This document shows positions 3,370 to 57,959 of a DNA stretch of 64,000 nt, piece by piece. The notes below the pieces were generated by a model. It saw nothing but the letters and a program-made list of their open reading frames with translations. It did not search any database and was not told where the DNA came from. The translations under genes and the position numbers were made by a program. Positions within the stretch are counted from its first letter, which is position 1. Each line of letters starts with the position of its first letter. Origin of the DNA: Planktothrix tepida (GTDB lineage: Bacteria > Cyanobacteriota > Cyanobacteriia > Cyanobacteriales > Microcoleaceae); assembly GCF_904830955.1 (NCBI RefSeq), contig NZ_LR882970.1. One strand, given 5' to 3'.

Positions 3370-5007
3370 ATGAGAACTTCAAAACTTTTATCTCGGACAA
3401 GCACTCAGTCAGCAAAATTTACCGTTTCCAGCTTAATTTTCTTTTCTTTACTCGTTTTTTCTCCCATTCCCACCCTCGCCCAAGACCCAGACCCCCAAGC
3501 TCAAAACACCAACCCAACGTTAAAAATCGGTGTAGTGCAACACTTTGGCCAAAAACCCACCGATCAACTCATTCTCAAAGCACAACCGGGAGATCACTTA
3601 ACCCTAGAGTTTCAAACGCCCCAAGGAGACAAAGAACTGCATACGGAGACGGTGATCCTGAAAATCGGAGTTGAACCCCTCCCTGAACCTGAAGTTGAGG
3701 AAAGGGTGGTTTTGAGTACCCACCGCAGCTATGAAAATGCTGAAGAAGATGCTCAAAAATGGCGAGCGCTCGGTTTAGAAGTAGAATTAGCTCAACCGGA
3801 TCGTTGGCAAGTTTGGGGGAAACGTAGCGTCTATAATACCCCCCTGCTGCGACGTTGGTTAATCGATAGTTTACAAGCCCAAGGTCATAAAATCCCTAGT
3901 TTGGAAACTCAAGTTCTCACCCAAAAACGTACCCCCTATTGGACAACCGCAGGATATCGTTACAACCGTAATCAACTGGAGATTACAACCCCCCAGAATG
4001 TGATTCAAGTGAGTCAAAAACCGAATGATCCCCAACCTCTGGTTTATGGGGGAAGTTTACAACTGCAACCCGATGCTTACGGAACCTACACCCTGGTTAA
4101 TAACGTGCCATTAGAGACTTATTTACGGGGTGTCGTGCCACATGAAATTGGAGCTTGGCCCCCGGAGGCGTCTATCGAAGCCCAAGCGGTTTTAGCGCGA
4201 ACCTATGCGTTACGAAATCTGCGACGATTTGAAGCGGATAATTATCATCTCTGTGCTAATACGGACTGTCAAGTGTATAAAGGGTTAACGGAAGTTTATC
4301 CCAGTACGGATGAAGCCATTGATGTTACGAGTGGTTTAGTTTTAACCTATAACAATCAATTGACGGATGCGGTGTATTTTTCCACCAGTGGGGGAGTTAC
4401 TGCTAATTATAATGATATTTGGAATGGGGAACCGCGACCTTATTTACAAGGAATTATTGATGCTCCGAATAAAATTTGGGATTTATCTCAACAAAATTTA
4501 GCGTCAGAACCGAATTTTCGACGGTTTATGAATTTGCAAAAGGGATTTAATGAAACCGGAGAATATGATTTTCGCTGGCGAGAAGAAACAACTTTAGAAT
4601 CCATTGCAGAACAATTGCGGTATTACTTGAAACGGCGCAATCTGCCTGATGCCAATTTTAAAAAAGTTCAAAAAATTGAAATTGTAGAGCGATCGCAAAC
4701 GGGACGAGTTTTGAAAATGACGGTAACGACAGATCAAGGCGTTTTGGAAATTTCTAAGGATGAAATCCAAAGTGCTTTTTTACCCCCGATTAGCACGTTA
4801 TTTTATATTGATCCGGTTTACAACCCTAACAAAACCTTGAAAGGTTACGTCTTTGTTGGGGGTGGTTATGGACATGGGGTAGGTATGAGTCAAACGGGTT
4901 CTTATCACTTGGCTAAATTGGGATGGTCAAGCGAGGAAATTTTAAACTTTTACTTCCCTGGAACCCAACTACAACCGTTTAATACTGTGATGCAGTTGGG
5001 ACAATAA
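3370..5007 (+). CDS. SpoIID/LytB domain protein (secreted)
   Basis: Signal peptide, then the SpoIID core block YLRGVVPHEIGAWPPEASIEAQAVLARTYALRNLRRFEADNYHLCANTDCQVYKG, and the C-terminal GGGYGHGVGMSQTGSYHLA motif. Confidence 0.85.
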   Translation: MRTSKLLSRTSTQSAKFTVSSLIFFSLLVFSPIPTLAQDPDPQAQNTNPTLKIGVVQHFGQKPTDQLILKAQPGDHLTLEFQTPQGDKELHTETVILKIGVEPLPEPEVEERVVLSTHRSYENAEEDAQKWRALGLEVELAQPDRWQVWGKRSVYNTPLLRRWLIDSLQAQGHKIPSLETQVLTQKRTPYWTTAGYRYNRNQLEITTPQNVIQVSQKPNDPQPLVYGGSLQLQPDAYGTYTLVNNVPLETYLRGVVPHEIGAWPPEASIEAQAVLARTYALRNLRRFEADNYHLCANTDCQVYKGLTEVYPSTDEAIDVTSGLVLTYNNQLTDAVYFSTSGGVTANYNDIWNGEPRPYLQGIIDAPNKIWDLSQQNLASEPNFRRFMNLQKGFNETGEYDFRWREETTLESIAEQLRYYLKRRNLPDANFKKVQKIEIVERSQTGRVLKMTVTTDQGVLEISKDEIQSAFLPPISTLFYIDPVYNPNKTLKGYVFVGGGYGHGVGMSQTGSYHLAKLGWSSEEILNFYFPGTQLQPFNTVMQLGQ

Positions 5008-5381: not shown

Positions 5382-5784
5382 TCATAAATTTCGATAAAAT
5401 TTGAAAAATCTCTTAGGCTTCACCAAAGCGTTCACTCGCCTTTGTTGACATCACAGATTTTTTTCACCCTTTGATATTAAGAGAAAAAGTGAAAGATGTA
5501 AAACAGGATTAACCTAAATTGTGAATGGGATTTATTATAATTTTTTATAATTATATCTTAATTGCTTATAGTTCACCTGTTGATGATTGACCCTAGAATT
5601 ATCTCAGATCAAGGCTCTGAGAAAGGCATGAAGTTAGGTCAGTGGCAGTCCAAACTCTCAATTTTTCTTCCCTAGACCTTGACTTCAGCCTTTCAATTCA
5701 TTGAAGTCGTTTGCCCATTAGGAGATCAAAGCTTAATGTTGAGTCAGATGGGTCAACCTTAAACTCTGAACCCTAACCCAAGGA

Positions 5785-6105
<321 letters not shown>

Positions 6106-6412
6106 CTATAAAAATCACTTATGCAAATCAAAAGCGTTAATTAGCCTTCGTTTGCATCGCCGATTTATTTTACCTCTCGATATTAGAAGAAAAAGTGAAG
6201 AATGTAAAACCTTGTTAAGCGACCTTTTGAAAGGGATTTATTATAAATTTTTCTAATTACATCTTGATTACTTATATCTAGTCTTTGTGTCCCAGGGAGA
6301 AGAGCAGATTAGAGAAACCAGGGGAGAATGGGACAGATGGGGTTTTAGTTGCTGGTTAAGTGGGTGTAGGGTATTAAGTCGGATGAATATTTGAGATCAG
6401 GAGTTGGTGATC

Positions 6413-7423
6413 ATGAGTCAATCTTTAGATTTATCTTGGGGTAAGGTTTCTCAACCCCTAGGAGTGGGTATTGTTGGGACAGGATATGCAGCAAAAATGC
6501 GAGCAACAGCCTTAAAGGCCGATGAGCGATCGCAACTTGTGGCCATTTCGGGTCATACCTCCGCTTCAACCCTTGCGTTGAGTCAAGAATTTGATGTGAC
6601 AGTATCGGCATCTTGGACAGATTTAGTCCAACGACCGGATATCGATTTAGTCATGATTTGTACAATTAATCGAGATCATGGCCAGATTGCTCGTCACGCC
6701 TTAGAACAGGGTAAACACGTCGTTGTCGAATATCCCCTGAGTTTAGATCCCCAGGAAGCAGAATCTTTAATTACCCTCGCCCAAGAGAAAAACAAACTCC
6801 TCCATGTTGAACATATTGAACTCTTGGGGGGACTGCACAACGCAATCAAAGCATCCCTAGCAGCTATTGGTCAAGTATTTTATGTTCGCTATGTCACGTT
6901 TAACCCCCAACATCCAGCCTCTCGGAAATGGACATATCAACCGTCTTTATTTGGGTTTCCCCTGAGTGGAGCTTTGTCCCGTTTGCATCGGTTTACGGAT
7001 TTATTTGGAACCGTAGCCAGTGTTAACTGTCAAAATCAATATTGGGAGATTGAACCGGATCTGTACAAAGCTTGTTTATGTCATGCCCAGTTAACCTTTA
7101 ATAATGGCATCCTGGGAGAATCGGTTTATGGTAAAGGGGAGGTTTTTTGGCAGTCGGAAAATACGTTTACCCTCTATGGAGAACAGGGAACATTAATTTT
7201 TACCCCCGAAAAGGGCCAACTGATTCAAAACGATACCATTCAAACCCTTGAAGTTGCTTCTCGTCGGGGATTATTTGTTAAAGATACCCAAATGGTTTTA
7301 GATTGTCTCTACCAAGGAACCCCCCTTTATGTAACACCAGAAGCCAGTTTATATAGTCTAAAAGTGGCTGAGGCGGCCCGACAGTCGAGTTTATCCGGGC
7401 AAAAATACAATCTAAATCCCTAG
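6413..7423 (+). CDS. bvdR: Biliverdin reductase (Gfo/Idh/MocA-like fold)
   Basis: GKHVVVEYPLSLDPQEAESLITLAQEKNKLLHVEHIELLGG aligns with human BVR-A [41 protein letters not shown] (recalled). FGFPLSGALSRLHRFTDLFG aligns with [20 protein letters not shown]. The N-terminal GIVGTGYAA Rossmann motif is present. The ATG at 6413 is preferred over the upstream TTG 6404 because an AGGAG sits 10 nt upstream. Confidence 0.75.
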   Translation: MSQSLDLSWGKVSQPLGVGIVGTGYAAKMRATALKADERSQLVAISGHTSASTLALSQEFDVTVSASWTDLVQRPDIDLVMICTINRDHGQIARHALEQGKHVVVEYPLSLDPQEAESLITLAQEKNKLLHVEHIELLGGLHNAIKASLAAIGQVFYVRYVTFNPQHPASRKWTYQPSLFGFPLSGALSRLHRFTDLFGTVASVNCQNQYWEIEPDLYKACLCHAQLTFNNGILGESVYGKGEVFWQSENTFTLYGEQGTLIFTPEKGQLIQNDTIQTLEVASRRGLFVKDTQMVLDCLYQGTPLYVTPEASLYSLKVAEAARQSSLSGQKYNLNP

Positions 7424-7562
7424 AAGATTTTCTCTGTTAGAAGCTGAAATTGATCGGGATATCCTCAAAAATCACATTAAAATCCGTAATTTTAGCTATT
7501 CTATCAGAGATGTTTTTCAAGAGTTATGCGATCGCTATTCGCCACAAACGAGGTTAACCGAT

Positions 7563-7970
7563 ATGTCCATTAAACCTAGCCAATTAATCATAGCAGGTGG
7601 AATCGGGGTGATTGCTGGGGTAACAATTGCTGTGATGACGGTTCAGTCTCCCTCATCGAAATCGTCCCCTACTCCTCAAACCCAGTCTCCTCGACCTTCT
7701 GAACCCCCCATTACCTCAGTTCCCGCATCCGTTCCCAACACACCACCACCATCGGAAAGTCGTCCGATTGCTGTCATTAAACCCCCTGTGGAGGGTTGCA
7801 AAGTTAGCACAGCCGTTGTCAAAGATCCCGATCCACCATTGAACGTTCGTTCAACACCGGAAGTAACAGAGGGTAATATTGTCGGTCAATTGAATAATAA
7901 TACCTTTGTTTTTGTAATTGAAGAAAAAAGTAGACTTATTGCCTGTAGACTTATTGCCTACAAAAGTTGA
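7563..7970 (+). CDS. Membrane-anchored Pro-rich protein with a bacterial SH3-like (SH3b) domain, apparently 3'-truncated
   Basis: TM helix, then a P/S/T-rich linker, then LNVRSTPEVTEGNIVGQLNNNTFVFVIEE, an SH3b signature. The reading frame leaves the SH3b fold exactly where the AT-rich restriction-modification block begins (~7926). Confidence 0.5.
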   Translation: MSIKPSQLIIAGGIGVIAGVTIAVMTVQSPSSKSSPTPQTQSPRPSEPPITSVPASVPNTPPPSESRPIAVIKPPVEGCKVSTAVVKDPDPPLNVRSTPEVTEGNIVGQLNNNTFVFVIEEKSRLIACRLIAYKS

Positions 7971-7980
7971 TGATATTCAC

Positions 7981-8238
7981 GTGAATATAAATTCAAAACA
8001 AAATATTAAATATCGCTTTGGTAAAGCCATAAGGCGACGTCGCCGAGAGTTAGACCTATCTCAAGAAGATCTAGCAGAACGCTCAGAACTTCATCGCACC
8101 TATATTTCGAGTATAGAGAGAGGTCAGCGAAACCCCTCTTTAGAAAATATTGAAAAGATAGCACAAGCTTTGAGGATTTCTATCTCTGATTTGTTTGCAA
8201 AATATAGTATAGAGGAAGAGAAGGAAACGGATGAGTAA
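7981..8238 (+). CDS. Controller (C) protein of a restriction-modification system, HTH_XRE family
   Basis: LDLSQEDLAERSELHRTYISSIERGQRNPSLENIEKIAQALRISISDLF is the canonical C-protein helix-turn-helix. The start is uncertain: GTG 7981, or the TTG at 7918 used in the ORF track. Its stop overlaps the ATG of the downstream gene. Confidence 0.75.
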   Translation: MNINSKQNIKYRFGKAIRRRRRELDLSQEDLAERSELHRTYISSIERGQRNPSLENIEKIAQALRISISDLFAKYSIEEEKETDE

Positions 8239-9190
8239 GGAACATTGGTTTTTAAAACAAGAAACAGAGAAGGATACGAAATATACAATTAAAGGTAGTG
8301 AGGTTTACCAAACACTATATCCACAAATTAAAGATAAGATTGATAAAAATGAATCAGTTATTGATATTCTCACTTGGATAGAGGCAGAAGTAAAAACAGC
8401 TTATAATGAAGCTTATAAAGGTTCTGAAATCGAGCTAACCCAAGGTGCACTGAATAATTGTAGAGGTCAATGGAATGAATTCTTAATTACTAGCTTTTTA
8501 GCTGAAATTGCTATAGATTTCTATTCAACTCATAAACTCTATTTTGTACCTTTTCGCTTAGCACGTTCTGGGGAAACTAATAAAACTGTTAAGAAACCGA
8601 AATCACAAAAAAAGGGAACGAGTCAGGAAACTGTATCAACTGAGGAAACTGTATCATCAGAAGCAGCATCCAAGTTTTTAGCACTCTTTCATAAAGATGA
8701 ATTTAAAGAGAACAAAGGCTTACACCATATTAATCAATTCAAAGATAACATATTTTTTTCGAGTCCTGACTATGTTTTATCAATCTTAGATGATCAAGGC
8801 TTGTTTAATCAGATTCAACCTTTATTAAATCAACAAGCAAACGAAGCGGAATCTTTAGGAACTGAAATTTATAAATTATTACAAGGTAAACTAAAAGCGC
8901 AAGAAGTTAAAGCAGTCCTATCTGTCAAAATTTCTAACCGTCCAGATCGTCGTTATCAAGCATTATATGAAACAGCAATGATCAAAGCGATTGGATATGC
9001 TTGTGGGCAAAACTGGAAATATTATATGGTTACGGCAAAACAAGCTTCACTATCAGATGTAAAAATTTTTACTAAAGGAATTGCACCTCATGGAATCGCC
9101 ATTAAGCGAGAATTGATAAGCGTAGATCAGGTTTACTCCTGTTCTAATAAACAAGATTTGATCAAGTTAGTCGAAGATGCTTTACCCTAA
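8231..9190 (+). CDS. Putative type II restriction endonuclease
   Basis: 319-aa AT-rich ORF. It is translationally coupled to the C-protein (ATGA overlap) and convergent with a cytosine-5 methyltransferase. A D...E-x-K-like arrangement (VIDILTWIEAEVK) is compatible with the PD-(D/E)XK fold. No family was assigned. Confidence 0.55.
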   Translation: MSKEHWFLKQETEKDTKYTIKGSEVYQTLYPQIKDKIDKNESVIDILTWIEAEVKTAYNEAYKGSEIELTQGALNNCRGQWNEFLITSFLAEIAIDFYSTHKLYFVPFRLARSGETNKTVKKPKSQKKGTSQETVSTEETVSSEAASKFLALFHKDEFKENKGLHHINQFKDNIFFSSPDYVLSILDDQGLFNQIQPLLNQQANEAESLGTEIYKLLQGKLKAQEVKAVLSVKISNRPDRRYQALYETAMIKAIGYACGQNWKYYMVTAKQASLSDVKIFTKGIAPHGIAIKRELISVDQVYSCSNKQDLIKLVEDALP

Positions 9191-9199
9191 TCATTAGGA

Positions 9200-10411
9200 T
9201 TAGATCGTATATTTTTCAGAACTACTATAAACCAATGGTAATTCTAATTGGTGAATCATAGGAACTTTATAGGTTAAATATTTTTGGCTTAGAAAATCTA
9301 AAATCGTTTCAGCGATACCTCTAGCTGCTAAATAAGGAACACCATTACCAATCGTTTTAAACATACTACTGAGACTCATTTTAGAAGGTAATACAAATTC
9401 TTTAGGTAAAGATTGTATTGCCAGTGCTTCTGCTGCTGAAATACGGCGAATTTTATAGGGATGGAGATGAACTTCATTATTACCATAACAAGCGGTTGGA
9501 GAATAACGCCATCGATGAAGACGTTTATAGGATTTTTTGCAATCATCTCCTTCAGGAATGATACTAAACTTAGCTAAACCTGCTCTGGGTTTAAAATAGT
9601 GTTCTGCGTTAGGATGAAAAACAACATTATTTTTTCTAAACCAATATTCAACCGTTAATTCTTCAGGAATACCCGGAGGACAATCTAAAACAGAATTTTC
9701 TACAAATGAATCTAATTTAGGCCAGGAATAAGAGAAAACCTGATCTCTAGGATAGATAATATGTTGTTTCCAAGGAAATAAGCCATCAGGAATTACTGAA
9801 CTATAACAGCTATCAAAACCTATATTATTGAGTAATGATTCTTGAAAACCAATTAAGATCAGTCGATCTCGATCTTGGGGAACTCCATATTCAATGGCAT
9901 TAATTAAACGTTCGGTCAAACGATAATTATTGAACGTAAGTTTTCGCTTCATTTCTTCATAAAACATTCGGTGTTTTTTCGTAGACCATAACCCCTTAAC
10001 ATTCTCAAAAACAAAAAAATCGGGTCGCTGCTGACAAATTAACTCAACGTAACACGCTGTCAATTTTCCTTGATCACCATTTTTACCTCGATTTTTCCCC
10101 CCTACAGAAAAATCAGGACAGGGAGGGCCAGCAATAAAACCAATTAAATCTGAAGTTTGGCGAGTTTGTTTAACTAAAACTTGTAAATGCTCTTTTCGAT
10201 TTCCTTCTGTTAAGTTAATAATATCATCCTCAAAATATCCATATTCGGGTTCAGGAATTCCTAAGATTTGTCGAGAGTAACAATAAGCCTCTAAAAATGG
10301 CGGGTAAATTTCATTAACAAAAGCAACATTAAAGCCACTATGTTCAAACCCTAAATCTAAAAAACCTGCGCCAGAAAAAAAAGAAAATAATTGAATATTC
10401 TTAGAATTCAT
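9200..10411 (-). CDS. DNA (cytosine-5)-methyltransferase
   Basis: m5C MTase motifs are present: I FSGAGFLDLGF, IV GPPCPDFS, VI ENV, VIII QDRDRL. Composition is AT-rich like the neighbouring REase and C genes. Confidence 0.85.
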   Translation of the reverse strand: MNSKNIQLFSFFSGAGFLDLGFEHSGFNVAFVNEIYPPFLEAYCYSRQILGIPEPEYGYFEDDIINLTEGNRKEHLQVLVKQTRQTSDLIGFIAGPPCPDFSVGGKNRGKNGDQGKLTACYVELICQQRPDFFVFENVKGLWSTKKHRMFYEEMKRKLTFNNYRLTERLINAIEYGVPQDRDRLILIGFQESLLNNIGFDSCYSSVIPDGLFPWKQHIIYPRDQVFSYSWPKLDSFVENSVLDCPPGIPEELTVEYWFRKNNVVFHPNAEHYFKPRAGLAKFSIIPEGDDCKKSYKRLHRWRYSPTACYGNNEVHLHPYKIRRISAAEALAIQSLPKEFVLPSKMSLSSMFKTIGNGVPYLAARGIAETILDFLSQKYLTYKVPMIHQLELPLVYSSSEKYTI

Positions 10412-10545
10412 TATATTTAATGTAAAATTTATTAAAGATATTAAACTTTTTATATGGAATTATATTTTGGTTCACTCCCACTGCATAAAAAGGGCGATCG
10501 CATTCAATCACCCCCTTCATTATACTAATCGATTGTCTAAAGCGA

Positions 10546-11964
<1,419 letters not shown>

Positions 11965-12072
11965 TTAATCGAATGTTAGTTAATCAAAATTAGACAAGAG
12001 TATCCATGACTTAAAATCCTGCGGATTCAAAGTCCAACCTCGATTAAGAATTAGGGAAACTAAACCAGGAAA

Positions 12073-13575
12073 TTATTTAAAATCTGACAGGGAAATTTCG
12101 TCATCATCTGAAGAACCGGTTAATCCGTCGATATCAATATCGTCCATATCTCCAGTTGTTAAATCACCCATATCGTCGAGATTAAAATCCCCTAAATCAT
12201 CGGATGAAAAATCATCATCCCCTAATCCTAAATCGTCTAAATTATCTCCGGTATCGAGATCCAGGCCATCGGAAGAGTTATCTTCCCCCAATCCTAAATC
12301 ACCCAGATCATCATCCAGACTTGAATCTGTATCTCCTAATTCCAACCCTCCTAAATCATCAGAACCAAGGTCGTCAGCTTCTAGGCTGATTTCTCCATCT
12401 AAGTCATCTGCGGCTAAAACTTCCGACTCTAAGCTGAGATCGTCCATTCCATCTGAACCCAGATCATCGGAGGATTCCAAACCAAAATCGATATCATCGC
12501 TTGTCTCCGTGTCTTCACCCAGTTCCGTATTAACGTTGTCGTCCCAGACATCAGATTCGGTATCAATGTCTAATTCAGCCGATTCCGTTTGCGAATCTAA
12601 GCTCAAATCGAAATCATCAGATGTCATCTCATCGGAGTCTAAACCCATGTCTAGGTCATCAGCACCCATCTCATCGGAATCTAAACCCATGTCTAGGTCA
12701 TCAGCACCCATCTCATCGGAATCTAAGCCCATGTCTAGGTCATCAGCACCCATCTCATCGGAATCTAAGCCCATGTCTAGGTCATCAGCACCCATCTCAT
12801 CGGAGTCTAAACCCATGTCCAGGTCATCAGCACCCATCTCATCGGAATCTAAGCCCATGTCTAGGTCATCAGCACCGACGGCTTCTGATTCATCCTCCAA
12901 CCCTAGATCAAAGTCTTCCTCGGCTACGCTAGCCGTCTCTGTGTCGATATCTAAATCCAGATCCCCATCGACATCAGTGTCCTCCATTGCCTCTGCATCC
13001 AGATCATCCATTCCGAAATCATCATCCATGCCGGAATCATCCAGGCCCATCTCATCGATGGTGATTTCTTCTTCGGTATCAAGCTCGAGTTCATCGGAGT
13101 CATCCAGGGTATCGGCAATCACCGCAGCCCCTCCAACAACAGCGGCAGCACTGGCAACGGCCACGGCAGCACCCGCTATATTGGGTTGTTCTACCAGAGT
13201 CACTTCCTCCTCTAAATTCAGTGTCTCTGGAGGGGCCGGAGGAACCGGAGTTGGCGTTGGAACAACTACCGTTGGAGATTCTCCTGGGGTAGGCCTAATG
13301 CCCAACGCTATATCGGGATCAAAATTCAGCCCTAAAACATCAATCAGTTTTTCAGGATCTGGATTGAGTTTAGAAAAGGGCAACATGAGTTGGGCTGCCT
13401 CTGGGTCAAGCGCGTTGATCGTTCCCAAAATGAGGGAGGAGGCGGGTCTTCGACCCCCATCGGGGGTCGGTATTGAATTCAAATCCATTTGCAGTACCAG
13501 CCACTCTCGATTGGCTTGGTAATATTGCAACCACTTATCTTTAAGCGCGGTGGTAAAGTCTTTGAAGAAAGCCAT
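12073..13575 (-). CDS. Conserved cyanobacterial ORF between chlL and chlN, with a hyper-acidic tandem-repeat C-terminal region (N-terminal domain recalled as DUF5331-like)
   Basis: N-terminus MAFFKDFTTALKDKWLQYYQANREWL, then a Pro-rich linker, then D/E/G/L/M-rich sequence including six perfect GADDLDMGLDSDEM repeats. The position between chlL and chlN is conserved in other filamentous cyanobacteria (recalled). Confidence 0.55.
   Translation of the reverse strand: MAFFKDFTTALKDKWLQYYQANREWLVLQMDLNSIPTPDGGRRPASSLILGTINALDPEAAQLMLPFSKLNPDPEKLIDVLGLNFDPDIALGIRPTPGESPTVVVPTPTPVPPAPPETLNLEEEVTLVEQPNIAGAAVAVASAAAVVGGAAVIADTLDDSDELELDTEEEITIDEMGLDDSGMDDDFGMDDLDAEAMEDTDVDGDLDLDIDTETASVAEEDFDLGLEDESEAVGADDLDMGLDSDEMGADDLDMGLDSDEMGADDLDMGLDSDEMGADDLDMGLDSDEMGADDLDMGLDSDEMGADDLDMGLDSDEMTSDDFDLSLDSQTESAELDIDTESDVWDDNVNTELGEDTETSDDIDFGLESSDDLGSDGMDDLSLESEVLAADDLDGEISLEADDLGSDDLGGLELGDTDSSLDDDLGDLGLGEDNSSDGLDLDTGDNLDDLGLGDDDFSSDDLGDFNLDDMGDLTTGDMDDIDIDGLTGSSDDDEISLSDFK
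12620..12895. repeat. Perfect 42-bp tandem repeat, ~6.5 copies, in frame within the acidic protein gene
   Basis: The unit CATCTCATCGGARTCTAARCCCATGTCTAGGTCATCAGCACC is repeated head-to-tail with only 1-2 variable positions. Confidence 0.9.
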
Positions 13576-49864: not shown

Positions 49865-50884
49865 TTAATCCTGAGCTAGGGTAATTGTTTTCGCCTCTAT
49901 CATCTTGGCGGTGGGCAGATTTACATCCCAAGCCCAGCCTAATTTTTCCAAGATCCAAATTACTGCATAACCAATATCAATTTGCCACCCTTTCAAACCG
50001 ATAGCAGCAGAGCTTTCAAACGCATGGTGATTGTTTTGCCAAGACTCGCCAAACGTTGGGATAGCCACCCAAGGGTTATTCTTGCTTTGATCGCCTGTCT
50101 TAAAACCACGAGTCCCATAAACATGAGAGACGGAATTAACGCTCAATATGATGTTATCTACAATAAACAGGCGCACAACACCACCCCAAAGAAAGCCTTG
50201 CAATGCTCCTATTAGGGACAAATGAAGTAGTCCGCCGATCATAGTAGGAATCGCTAGACCCAGAAGCACCCAAACTAGATACAATCGGCTAATTTTGGAT
50301 ATGCTTTGATCTCGCAGGAGTTCAGGGGCATAATAGGTTGGATTAGGATAATCATGATCAATCAGCCAGCCAACATGGGAATGCCATAATCCCTTGAGAG
50401 TTCCGAGAAATCCCTGACCGTGAAGATTAGGGGAATGGGGATCACCGGGTAGATCACTGCACTCATGATGGCGACGATGAACGGCTACCCAGGAAATTAA
50501 GGGCCCTTGGGCAGCTACAGAACCCAATATGGCGAATATCACCCGAATGCTCTGGTGAGTTTTAAAAGCACGATGGGTATAGTAGCGATGAAAACCGACA
50601 CTCACCCCGGTCATGGTCAAAGCCCACATCACAATCAGCATTCCGATCTCGATTGGCCCAATGGGTAGCCACAAAAGAGAAATGATCGCCACAATTGTTC
50701 CTAAAAAGGGAATGAAATTGTACCACCAAAAATGTTTATATTGCAGTCCTTTAATGTAGTCATTGCTAATAACCTTTGTCTTCTGATTGGGTATGGCAGT
50801 ATCGAAATGTGTTGTCATTCTCTGAACTCCTAATAGATGACGCAATACAAAAATTTGGCAGTGAAAAAATCCGGATTCAGTCAA
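49865..50884 (-). CDS. Membrane fatty-acid desaturase, paralog 3
   Basis: His boxes HRYYTH, HRRHHECSD, QNNHHAFE. Confidence 0.85.
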   Translation of the reverse strand: MTESGFFHCQIFVLRHLLGVQRMTTHFDTAIPNQKTKVISNDYIKGLQYKHFWWYNFIPFLGTIVAIISLLWLPIGPIEIGMLIVMWALTMTGVSVGFHRYYTHRAFKTHQSIRVIFAILGSVAAQGPLISWVAVHRRHHECSDLPGDPHSPNLHGQGFLGTLKGLWHSHVGWLIDHDYPNPTYYAPELLRDQSISKISRLYLVWVLLGLAIPTMIGGLLHLSLIGALQGFLWGGVVRLFIVDNIILSVNSVSHVYGTRGFKTGDQSKNNPWVAIPTFGESWQNNHHAFESSAAIGLKGWQIDIGYAVIWILEKLGWAWDVNLPTAKMIEAKTITLAQD

Positions 50885-56822: not shown

Positions 56823-57959
56823 TTAATCCAAGTTAATGGTTTTAATTCCACTTTTTCCAGGAATTTTGGCAATTAGTAAATTAATGGCATTGACTACCGG
56901 ATCTAAATAAGCCTGGGTTAAAGTCGGATAAGGCTGAGGTTGGTTTTTGCCAATACCAAATTCTAATTTTTCCTCTTTTTCGGGTAGATATAAAGTCCCA
57001 AACATCCAGTCCCAAATTCCCAAAAACTCCCCGTAGTTCTTGTTAATGTGTTGGGGTGCTATGCTGTGATGAATTTGGTGTAGAACTGGACTTATAAAAA
57101 TATGGTTCCCTATCTTTCCATAATCAAGCCAGATGTGAGAATGGGCAAGATTACCACCTGCCATATAATATAGAGCGACCAAAAAATTCAGACCAAATAG
57201 AGTTATAACATGGATTTTACCAAAAAATAGATAAATTAGTATCCCTTGTAAAGGAGCGCTGATGGCTGTAGTAATCAGCTTTTTATTAAGTTCATATAAG
57301 GGGTGAGAACGATATAAACTAATGGGGGTCAAGACTTCACTGGAATGATGTAGACTGTGAAATTGCCACAGGATAGGATTTTGGTGATGCCAAGCATGGT
57401 TAAGGTAAGATGCAAAGTCAAAAACTGCAACAAATAAGAGGGTAAAAATCACGAGCGATCCCAAGTTTTCGGTTGTGAATCCGCCAAAATAACCAAAGGT
57501 TGCTTGCAGCCAATTATTGACTAGAGATGCTACTAATGATGTTTCAAACCACGCTAAACGCAAATTACCAGGAGCGAGAATATTATTGATGATAAAGATT
57601 TGATAATCTAGCAGGGCTGAAGGATGAAAGTAGATTTCTTTGGGGAAGCAAAAACTAAGAAATCCTTTAAAGTTAAGATCAGACTTAGGTTGCGATCGCC
57701 AATAAACCAGTCCAGCCAATAACAGAGAAGTTAATAAATATAGCCAATAAAGGCGACGGCTACCATTAAGGTGATGGAAGATTTGACTGCGAAAATATTC
57801 AAGAATTTGACCTAGTAATCTTTCTAGGTCTGCTACCCAAGTTGTTAATTCTGGTGTCATGGAATGTTTAGAAACAGAGAGTAGGGGGTGCTGAAATTTG
57901 CTAATTTTTATTACTGATTTAGCATTGGAGCCGAGACAAAAATATTTAGTCTGAGTCAA
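56823..57959 (-). CDS. Fatty acid hydroxylase / sterol desaturase superfamily membrane oxygenase
   Basis: His boxes HAWHHQ, FHSLHHSSE and LHQIHHS on a polytopic membrane scaffold. It overlaps the downstream DMT gene by 14 nt. Confidence 0.7.
   Translation of the reverse strand: MTQTKYFCLGSNAKSVIKISKFQHPLLSVSKHSMTPELTTWVADLERLLGQILEYFRSQIFHHLNGSRRLYWLYLLTSLLLAGLVYWRSQPKSDLNFKGFLSFCFPKEIYFHPSALLDYQIFIINNILAPGNLRLAWFETSLVASLVNNWLQATFGYFGGFTTENLGSLVIFTLLFVAVFDFASYLNHAWHHQNPILWQFHSLHHSSEVLTPISLYRSHPLYELNKKLITTAISAPLQGILIYLFFGKIHVITLFGLNFLVALYYMAGGNLAHSHIWLDYGKIGNHIFISPVLHQIHHSIAPQHINKNYGEFLGIWDWMFGTLYLPEKEEKLEFGIGKNQPQPYPTLTQAYLDPVVNAINLLIAKIPGKSGIKTINLD

Follow-up and report, generated by a model that had tools for sequence, protein, structure and literature searches.

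Genetic organization of the locus

We analyzed a restriction-modification (R-M) locus of Planktothrix tepida located within a stretch of 64,000 nucleotides of contig NZ_LR882970.1 (assembly GCF_904830955.1), here referred to as the window. The locus consists of a C-R-M cassette (7930-10411) encoding a controller protein (C), an endonuclease (R) and a convergent cytosine-5 methyltransferase (M), and it is preceded by a truncated gene for a protein with an SH3b domain. The comparison with related loci suggests that the cassette was very probably inherited vertically and that the upstream gene was shortened by a later deletion. The entire locus was also found in another P. tepida assembly, GCA_900009145.1 (L041). 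Homologs of R pointed to further copies of the cassette in other cyanobacteria. The closest relative found was L052, with 98.7% amino acid (aa) identity of chlN to the window. Furthermore, L049 belongs to Oscillatoriales CG2_30_40_61, and L081, L082, L083 and L085 are loci of P. agardhii.

The C gene is located on the plus strand (7981-8238) and encodes 85 aa with an HTH_3 fold and a recognition helix containing LHRTYIS. The protein matched the HTH_3 profile (2e-19; 3e-19 for the longer open reading frame (ORF) 7918-8238), and the closest solved structures in a search of the PDB were C.BclI (1.5e-15), C.AhdI (7e-11) and C.Esp1396I (5e-9). The start conserved among the relatives, and shared by all homologous cassettes, is GTG 7981 and not TTG 7918; GTG 7981 is thus the most likely start of the predicted gene. 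The stop of C and the start of R share 8 nucleotides (ATGAGTAA, 8231-8238), and an equivalent overlap was present in L049, L052 and L054.

The R gene (8231-9190, plus strand) encodes 319 aa and belongs to the Cfr10I/Bse634I-family (CCGG-family). Residues 13-318 matched the Pfam family Bse634I (PF07832) at 8e-46 with 157.1 bits (cut-off 27). The PDB search returned Cfr10I and Bse634I as well, with phmmer E-values between 1e-7 and 1e-5 for matches confined to the core. The catalytic motif E83...P179-D180-X52-K233-X13-E247 was invariant in 19 homologs and could be aligned to both enzymes. For the CCGG-family the motif E...PD-X46-53-K-X13-E has been described, with E80, D146, K198 and E212 as catalytic residues of Bse634I (PMC3413111). 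In Bse634I the CCGG core is read by R202, D204 and R205, and P203 together with N73 contacts the outer R:Y pair (PMC3413111). The residues R237-P238-D239-R240, N76 and G72 of R align with R202-P203-D204-R205, N73 and G69 of Bse634I.

The M gene (9200-10411, minus strand) is convergent with R, the two stop codons being 9 bp apart. It encodes a 403 aa cytosine-5 DNA methyltransferase which matched PF00145 (1e-46, 160 bits, cut-off 22) and TIGR00675 (1e-41, 143.5 bits, cut-off 100.65) and had M.HaeIII and M.HhaI as top solved structures. The motifs I (FSGAG), IV (GPPCPDFS), VI (FENVKG, with ENV), VIII (PQDRDR) and X (IGNGVP) were readable in the translation. Upstream of M, an intergenic region of the same strand (10412-10545) extends to the chlN stop and presumably holds the M promoter. 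The spacer between M and chlN, including a HIP1 site, was approximately 89% conserved with L052, L049 and the P. agardhii loci L081 and L082.

The GC content of the block was 33.4% compared to 40.1% for the total window, which is the lowest value of all 2.5-kb windows there. HIP1 (GCGATCGC) occurs 33 times in the window, which confirms its cyanobacterial origin, and the gap without HIP1 over the cassette measures 2,966 bp. No Rfam families were found between positions 7300 and 10700.

A first-pass annotation of the window had described a textbook helix-turn-helix C protein, a translationally coupled endonuclease candidate and a methyltransferase with motifs I, IV, VI and VIII as a complete cassette within an AT-rich, HIP1-free block of about 2.5 kb. 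Apart from minor corrections, gene content and base composition are in agreement with this description: all three genes were assigned to families by profile search, the best structural relatives of C are controller proteins, R starts within the overlap with C, and the family to which the 319-aa ORF was assigned is clearly one of nucleases. Only the argument from HIP1 did not hold, although the gap itself exists; we have dropped it since the gap ranks only sixth in size within the window and is therefore not statistically distinctive.

Judged by its predicted products, the cassette is a complete system of controller, restriction endonuclease and 5-methylcytosine (m5C) methyltransferase, and the defining features of the C, R and M families that could be checked at this level are all present. 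With its activities predicted, it can be assigned to the PvuII-type C-controlled Type IIP (possibly IIF) R-M systems with a nuclease of the Cfr10I/Bse634I-family. It is an uncharacterised new member of well-known families and otherwise a standard C-controlled Type II system. A literature search for R-M or methylome data of Planktothrix returned nothing specific.

Structure of the C-box and putative promoter

The DNA directly upstream of C carries the 15-mer GTAGACTTATTGCCT as an exact tandem pair (7930-7944 and 7945-7959), within which the previously noted 13-bp repeat (7931-7958) falls. The 26-bp core of the repeat occurred only once in the window and had no match in 100 shuffles. Two identical operators, OL (7933-7943) and OR (7948-7958), both GACTTATTGCC, are separated by the spacer TGTA (7944-7947). 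Thus, positions 7933-7958 read GACT-TAT-TGCC, TGTA, GACT-TAT-TGCC with a spacing of 11+4+11.

The C-box consensus is GACT-N3-AGTC-N4-GACT-N3-AGTC (Mruk et al. 2007, PMC2175313). The half-boxes 1A and 2A (GACT), the spacer and the spacing of the window agree exactly with the published element, and the half-boxes 1B and 2B (TGCC) match AGTC in 2 of 4 positions each. A TGTA spacer has been associated with C proteins whose recognition helix contains HRTY (PMC2175313), and this combination of HRTY (LHRTYIS) and TGTA is found in the window. In L049, L052, L054, L059, L060, L063, L070, L071 and L081/L082, an identical distance separates the element from the GTG start. An alignment of the DNA upstream of this start from ten cassettes showed the C-box to be conserved, several of them having full AGTC half-boxes. 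The textbook form was found in more distant cassettes such as L063 (TCACTTATAGTC-TGTA-GACTGATAGTC); the corresponding sequences are TCACTCAAAGTC-TGTA-GACCTATAGTC in L059, GAGACTTATTGCC-TGTA-GACTTATTGCC in P. agardhii and TAGACTTATTGCC-TGTA-GACTTATTGCC in the window. In P. agardhii the counterpart of the tandem repeat is GAGACTTATTGCCT-GTAGACTTATTGCCT. Cassettes of the Planktothrix clade have degenerate half-boxes 1B and 2B, and the repeat therefore looks direct rather than inverted.

The repeat had been suggested to be either a C-box-like operator or an insertion scar. Its layout, the pairing of TGTA with HRTY and the conservation in ten cassettes favor the operator: the tandem repeat, together covering 7930-7959 on the plus strand, is a PvuII-type C-box and the predicted binding site of C. 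A second C-box was found neither upstream of M (10412-10545) nor elsewhere in the window. A near-match at position 57338 lies inside an unrelated gene and was taken as a chance match.

A putative C-dependent promoter (7946-7977, plus strand) is composed of a -35-like hexamer TAGACT (7946-7951), which overlaps the spacer and half-box 2A, and a -10-like element GATGAT/GATATT (7969-7977). The transcript would accordingly start near GTG 7981. This geometry was kept in the relatives and parallels PvuII, where the spacer and half-box 2A overlap the -35 element of a C-activated leaderless transcript (PMC2175313).

Truncation of the SH3b gene

Upstream of the C-box, a chimeric ORF of 135 aa (7563-7970, plus strand) was found, ending with TGA at 7968-7970. 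Its native part comprises codons 1-122 (7563-7929) with a transmembrane helix, a proline-rich linker and the first ~30 residues of the SH3_3 domain, of which only profile positions 3-32 of 54 were covered. The remaining 13 codons (SRLIACRLIAYKS) originate from the C-box region. The ORF is 100% identical to the NCBI entry "SH3 type 3 domain protein [Planktothrix tepida]" and was present in L041 too. Homologs have 209-248 aa, the intact ones comprising 233-248 codons compared to the 122 native codons here, and continue with NGWL.I..P..GWVAKNRT past the last shared residues FVFVIEEK. SH3b homology stops after K122 (base 7929). The truncation exactly at the compositional switch, as proposed from the sequence of the window, could therefore be confirmed.

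The remnant shared 87% nucleotide identity with L052, ending at 7929, and 82-88% aa identity with the 248-aa ortholog of this locus. By BLASTN, window positions 7447-7929 corresponded to L052 3527-4009 and positions 7926-13151 to L052 4696-9782. The two segments overlap by the tetranucleotide AAAA (7926-7929), which was found in L052 at 4006-4009 as well as at 4696-4699, 690 bp apart according to BLASTN and anchored matching. P. tepida therefore lacks 690 bp that are present in L052, and the junction lies at a microhomology common to both breakpoints. The missing DNA comprises the last 126 codons of SH3b together with a hicB-like gene and a third, distal palindrome. In the comparisons with L049, L052 and L081, homology starts at 7926 in each case. 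Since a tblastn search of the whole 64-kb window for the 3' half of SH3b found nothing, i.e. the ~126 missing C-terminal codons are nowhere in the window, the truncation is not a simple insertion.

The hicB-like gene lost here (HicB-like/UPF0150, 54 aa) is located in L052 at 4410-4574 and in L049 at 5410-5574, both on the minus strand, and in L081 at 9517-9681 on the plus strand. It was always divergently oriented upstream of C in cassettes of the Planktothrix clade, had no visible HicA and was missing only in P. tepida. Additionally, a second break in synteny was observed at 7403-7447: homology to other Planktothrix ends at the gfo stop (~7403), and homology to L052 begins at 7447. In L052 a NACHT-like gene, and not gfo, is found upstream of SH3b.

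Predicted target specificity

The predicted target of the cassette is RCCGGY, with R predicted to cut R/CCGGY. R has kept counterparts of all residues which Bse634I uses for catalysis and base contacts. M homologs with 63-67% identity are labelled "modification methylase NmeDIP" in their source, and M.NmeDI recognises RCCGGB, whereas R.NmeDI and Cfr10I recognise RCCGGY (PMC2095814). RCCGGY was fivefold depleted in the window (4 sites observed, 20.8 expected, P = 9e-6).

An unlikely alternative is that the system targets TCCGGA in the manner of Kpn2I or BspEI. TCCGGA was rarer still (1 site versus 19.5 expected), and it was the most under-represented of 2,072 strand-collapsed hexamers in the window (P = 7e-8), the sole copy being located at 50870. 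It was low in other Planktothrix loci as well (1 versus 28.7 expected). Hence, site avoidance alone cannot single out RCCGGY, and the pooled cassette-bearing contigs were too small to separate both sequences in this way. However, R has kept the proline (P238) equivalent to P203 of Bse634I, for which a clash with the outer T methyl group, and hence exclusion of TCCGGA, has been proposed (PMC3413111). Moreover, the host of the L054 cassette showed no depletion of TCCGGA (4 versus 5.5), contigs with distant cassettes were depleted in ACCGGC/GCCGGT (1 versus 9.1), and the annotation of the M relatives as NmeDIP-like points to RCCGGB. A different R-M system elsewhere in the genome could account for the avoidance of TCCGGA, and its depletion is probably caused by such a system. 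Many other 6-bp palindromes were absent from the window, which suggests that the genome carries several further R-M systems.

Regulation and functional state of the system

In the proposed circuit, M would be expressed from its own minus-strand promoter, as judged by homology. C and R would form a plus-strand operon with a weak promoter overlapping the C-box and a transcript starting at or near GTG 7981. A C dimer bound to the distal OL would activate this operon, and repression would follow once C has risen further and a second dimer occupies OR, which overlaps the -35 element. Translation of R would be coupled to that of C via the ATGAGTAA overlap. R would then cut R/CCGGY, and M would protect RCCGGY sites by C5 methylation.

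A third, well-formed and C-box-like palindrome, GTTACTTATAGTAT (TACT-TAT-AGTA), was found in the close relatives and in L054, its centre lying 21 bp upstream of that of OL. Its positions are 4677-4690 in L052, 5679-5692 in L049, 4681-4694 in L054 and approximately 9400-9415 on the minus strand of L081, the sequence in P. agardhii being GTTGCTTATAGTAT. It was present neither in the window, where it has been deleted, nor in the more distant cassettes. The palindrome probably belongs to the control of C and R rather than to the hicB-like gene, since L054 has kept it without a hicB-like gene. No terminator was found between the truncated SH3b gene and C, so that read-through would be possible. Deletions adjoin the cassette on opposite sides in different species: P. 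tepida is affected in SH3b and the hicB-like gene, and P. agardhii has lost most of chlN. These observations might be combined into a broader, doubtful proposal: that cassettes of the Planktothrix clade use three-site control by the distal palindrome and two direct-repeat operators, that P. tepida is a natural mutant in which read-through from the truncated SH3b gene makes C and R partly independent of C, and that the resident R-M system is a local hotspot of deletions.

The main alternative to a functional system is partial decay. After the deletion C and R could be misregulated or R could be inactive. M would then effectively be an orphan methyltransferase, accompanied by C, and would methylate RCCGGY for other reasons. 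We regard this as quite unlikely. The ratio of nonsynonymous to synonymous substitutions (dN/dS) was indeed higher for R (0.39-0.87 among close relatives) than for M (0.08-0.13), and the aa identity to L049, L052 and L081 was 73-79% for R versus 94-97% for M. R also carries an insert of 30-40 residues (aa ~108-150) of low complexity, rich in K, S, T and E and of varying length among close relatives, and its residue 80 is Q, compared to an arginine in all distant members. In addition, nothing of the native DNA upstream of OL is left, the distal palindrome included, and read-through across the terminator-less interval could disturb the control of the operon. On the other side, the ORF was intact in every lineage with all family-invariant residues kept, including the catalytic and DNA-contacting ones. 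Substitutions avoided the conserved columns, affecting 3 of 85 family-conserved columns compared to 66 of 234 others. R was also highly diverged between L049 and L052 although their upstream regions are intact, and the avoidance of RCCGGY persists in the window. Strong purifying selection acts on M and C (dN/dS 0.08-0.18; 0.12-0.18 for C versus relatives). We therefore read R as functional, as far as its activity can be predicted, with fast-evolving surfaces.

History of the locus

Gene order and divergence argue for a cassette that was already resident next to chlN. In L052 the order is NACHT-like gene, intact SH3b (248 aa, full SH3_3), the 54-aa hicB-like gene, C, R, M, chlN and an acidic repeat protein. 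L049 has Uma2, hicB-like, C-R-M and chlN, and P. agardhii has Uma2 (or defence genes), hicB-like, C-R-M and a chlN remnant. Synonymous divergence (dS) was 0.13-0.31 for C, R and M and 0.28-0.38 for chlN; this similar magnitude is in line with co-inheritance. Residence beside chlN follows from the gene order of the relatives, the conserved M-chlN spacer and the chlN-like dS. We therefore consider it very likely, from the sequences compared, that the locus holds a vertically inherited, resident PvuII-type C-controlled Type IIP R-M system which was affected by a later flanking deletion. According to the comparison, the Planktothrix-like clade goes back to an ancestor with a unit of hicB-like gene and C-R-M next to chlN, and in the lineage of P. 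tepida one deletion of 690 bp between the two AAAA microhomologies joined codon 122 of SH3b directly to OL.

Several points weigh against this interpretation. Positions 7930-7931 read GT in the window and TG in all relatives, and the exact junction is thus uncertain by a few bases. The comparison of R between the window and L049 was near neutral (dN/dS 0.87), and some loss of activity would be possible. The putative promoter has only 8 of 12 consensus matches and falls below the threshold of a consensus scan, although an activator-dependent promoter is expected to score low. With the degenerate half-boxes 1B and 2B, the affinity of C or the repression by C may differ from PvuII. Furthermore, we infer C binding, promoter positions, cleavage and methylation from sequence.

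That C-R-M was instead inserted into an intact SH3b gene of P. tepida and left the repeat as a target-duplication scar, as the first-pass annotation had considered, is highly improbable: SH3b homology does end exactly at the drop in GC with the repeat at the junction, and more distant Planktothrix species have neither SH3b nor C-R-M after the gfo oxidoreductase gene (6404-7423), but in L052 an intact SH3b gene accompanies the cassette at this very position, the lost 3' half is not found downstream of the cassette either, and the repeat copies adjoin each other at one end with none at the M end. In cassettes of other genera and at unrelated loci, C is preceded by the same element. Neither terminal inverted repeats nor flanking duplications were found around the cassette, and no copy of the repeat was present near 10412-10545 or elsewhere in the window. 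Alignment to relatives, which had been proposed to define the insertion boundaries, recovered the intact SH3b gene, but the closest relative carries the cassette and the scan of genome contigs with gfo recovered no cassette-free locus; relatives with 85% identity keep fdx-fdx-gfo and lose synteny right after gfo. The contexts of distant SH3b homologs (P0006, P0008) had no conserved synteny.

Nucleotide identity between 7930 and 11952 was mosaic. C and chlN were nearest to L052, and M and parts of R were nearest to L049 and P. agardhii, which hints at recombination between cassette alleles.

Further features were observed in the neighborhood. In P. agardhii (L081 6581-6855; also L082, L083 and L085) most of chlN has been deleted next to the cassette: only a frameshifted remnant (aa ~372-468) follows, and beyond it genes for a rhodanese and a sulfate transporter are located. 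Some contigs of P. agardhii (L082-L085, e.g. L082 9693-12677) have GmrSD_N, AAA_15/DUF3696 and a 268-aa gene inserted between the hicB-like gene and Uma2, which gives the locus the appearance of a small defence island. In the window, positions 12073-13575 (minus strand) encode an extremely acidic protein of 500 aa with six tandem copies of GADDLDMGLDSDEM, which is variable in length and conserved in L049 and L052.

Implications

As for annotation, the 135-aa P. tepida protein listed as "SH3 type 3 domain protein" should be regarded as a chimera truncated by deletion. When base composition switches within a broken gene, this is not necessarily the site of an insertion; here the comparison with relatives reversed the direction of the inferred event. 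The predicted RCCGGY restriction barrier of Planktothrix with m5C protection matters for the transformation of these bloom-forming cyanobacteria, and DNA for this purpose could be pre-methylated or freed of RCCGGY sites. Of modest interest are the natural deletion next to the operators, the extra distal palindrome of the relatives and the deletions on opposite sides of the cassette in P. tepida and P. agardhii.

Comparison with known systems

Natural C-independent or altered regulation by C is represented by Csp231I and the Kpn2I roadblock (PMC4824078, PMC6237814). The P. tepida cassette resembles these systems as a C-associated R-M system with a non-canonical upstream control region, and read-through from the upstream gene into C would be possible in the window. 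It differs in that the window gave no sign of C-independent expression of R.

M shares all canonical m5C motifs with M.NmeDI, and the label of its cyanobacterial homologs refers to this enzyme. However, the NmeDIP label is an annotation transfer, and R is Cfr10I-like and unrelated to R.NmeDI (PMC2095814).

R resembles Cfr10I and Bse634I in its PF07832 match, the spacing of the catalytic motif and the RPDR stretch. The asparagine and proline which touch the outer base pair in Bse634I have counterparts, and RCCGGY is rare in the host sequence. In contrast to these enzymes, to which pairwise similarity is weak and limited to the core, R carries the variable insert, and its cleavage is a prediction.

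A close correspondence was found with the PvuII-type circuits (C.PvuII, C.BclI, C.AhdI and C.Esp1396I). The P. tepida cassette differs from them by its GTG start codon and by TGCC instead of AGTC in the half-boxes 1B and 2B, which results in a direct repeat; its close relatives additionally have the third palindrome, which P. tepida has lost. Shared features are a small HTH_3 protein with an HRTY helix, the position of C directly upstream of R with overlapping and co-oriented genes, two operators with GACT half-boxes, an operator spacing of 15 bp and a TGTA spacer, and a -35-like hexamer overlapped by the C-box just upstream of a predicted near-leaderless start.

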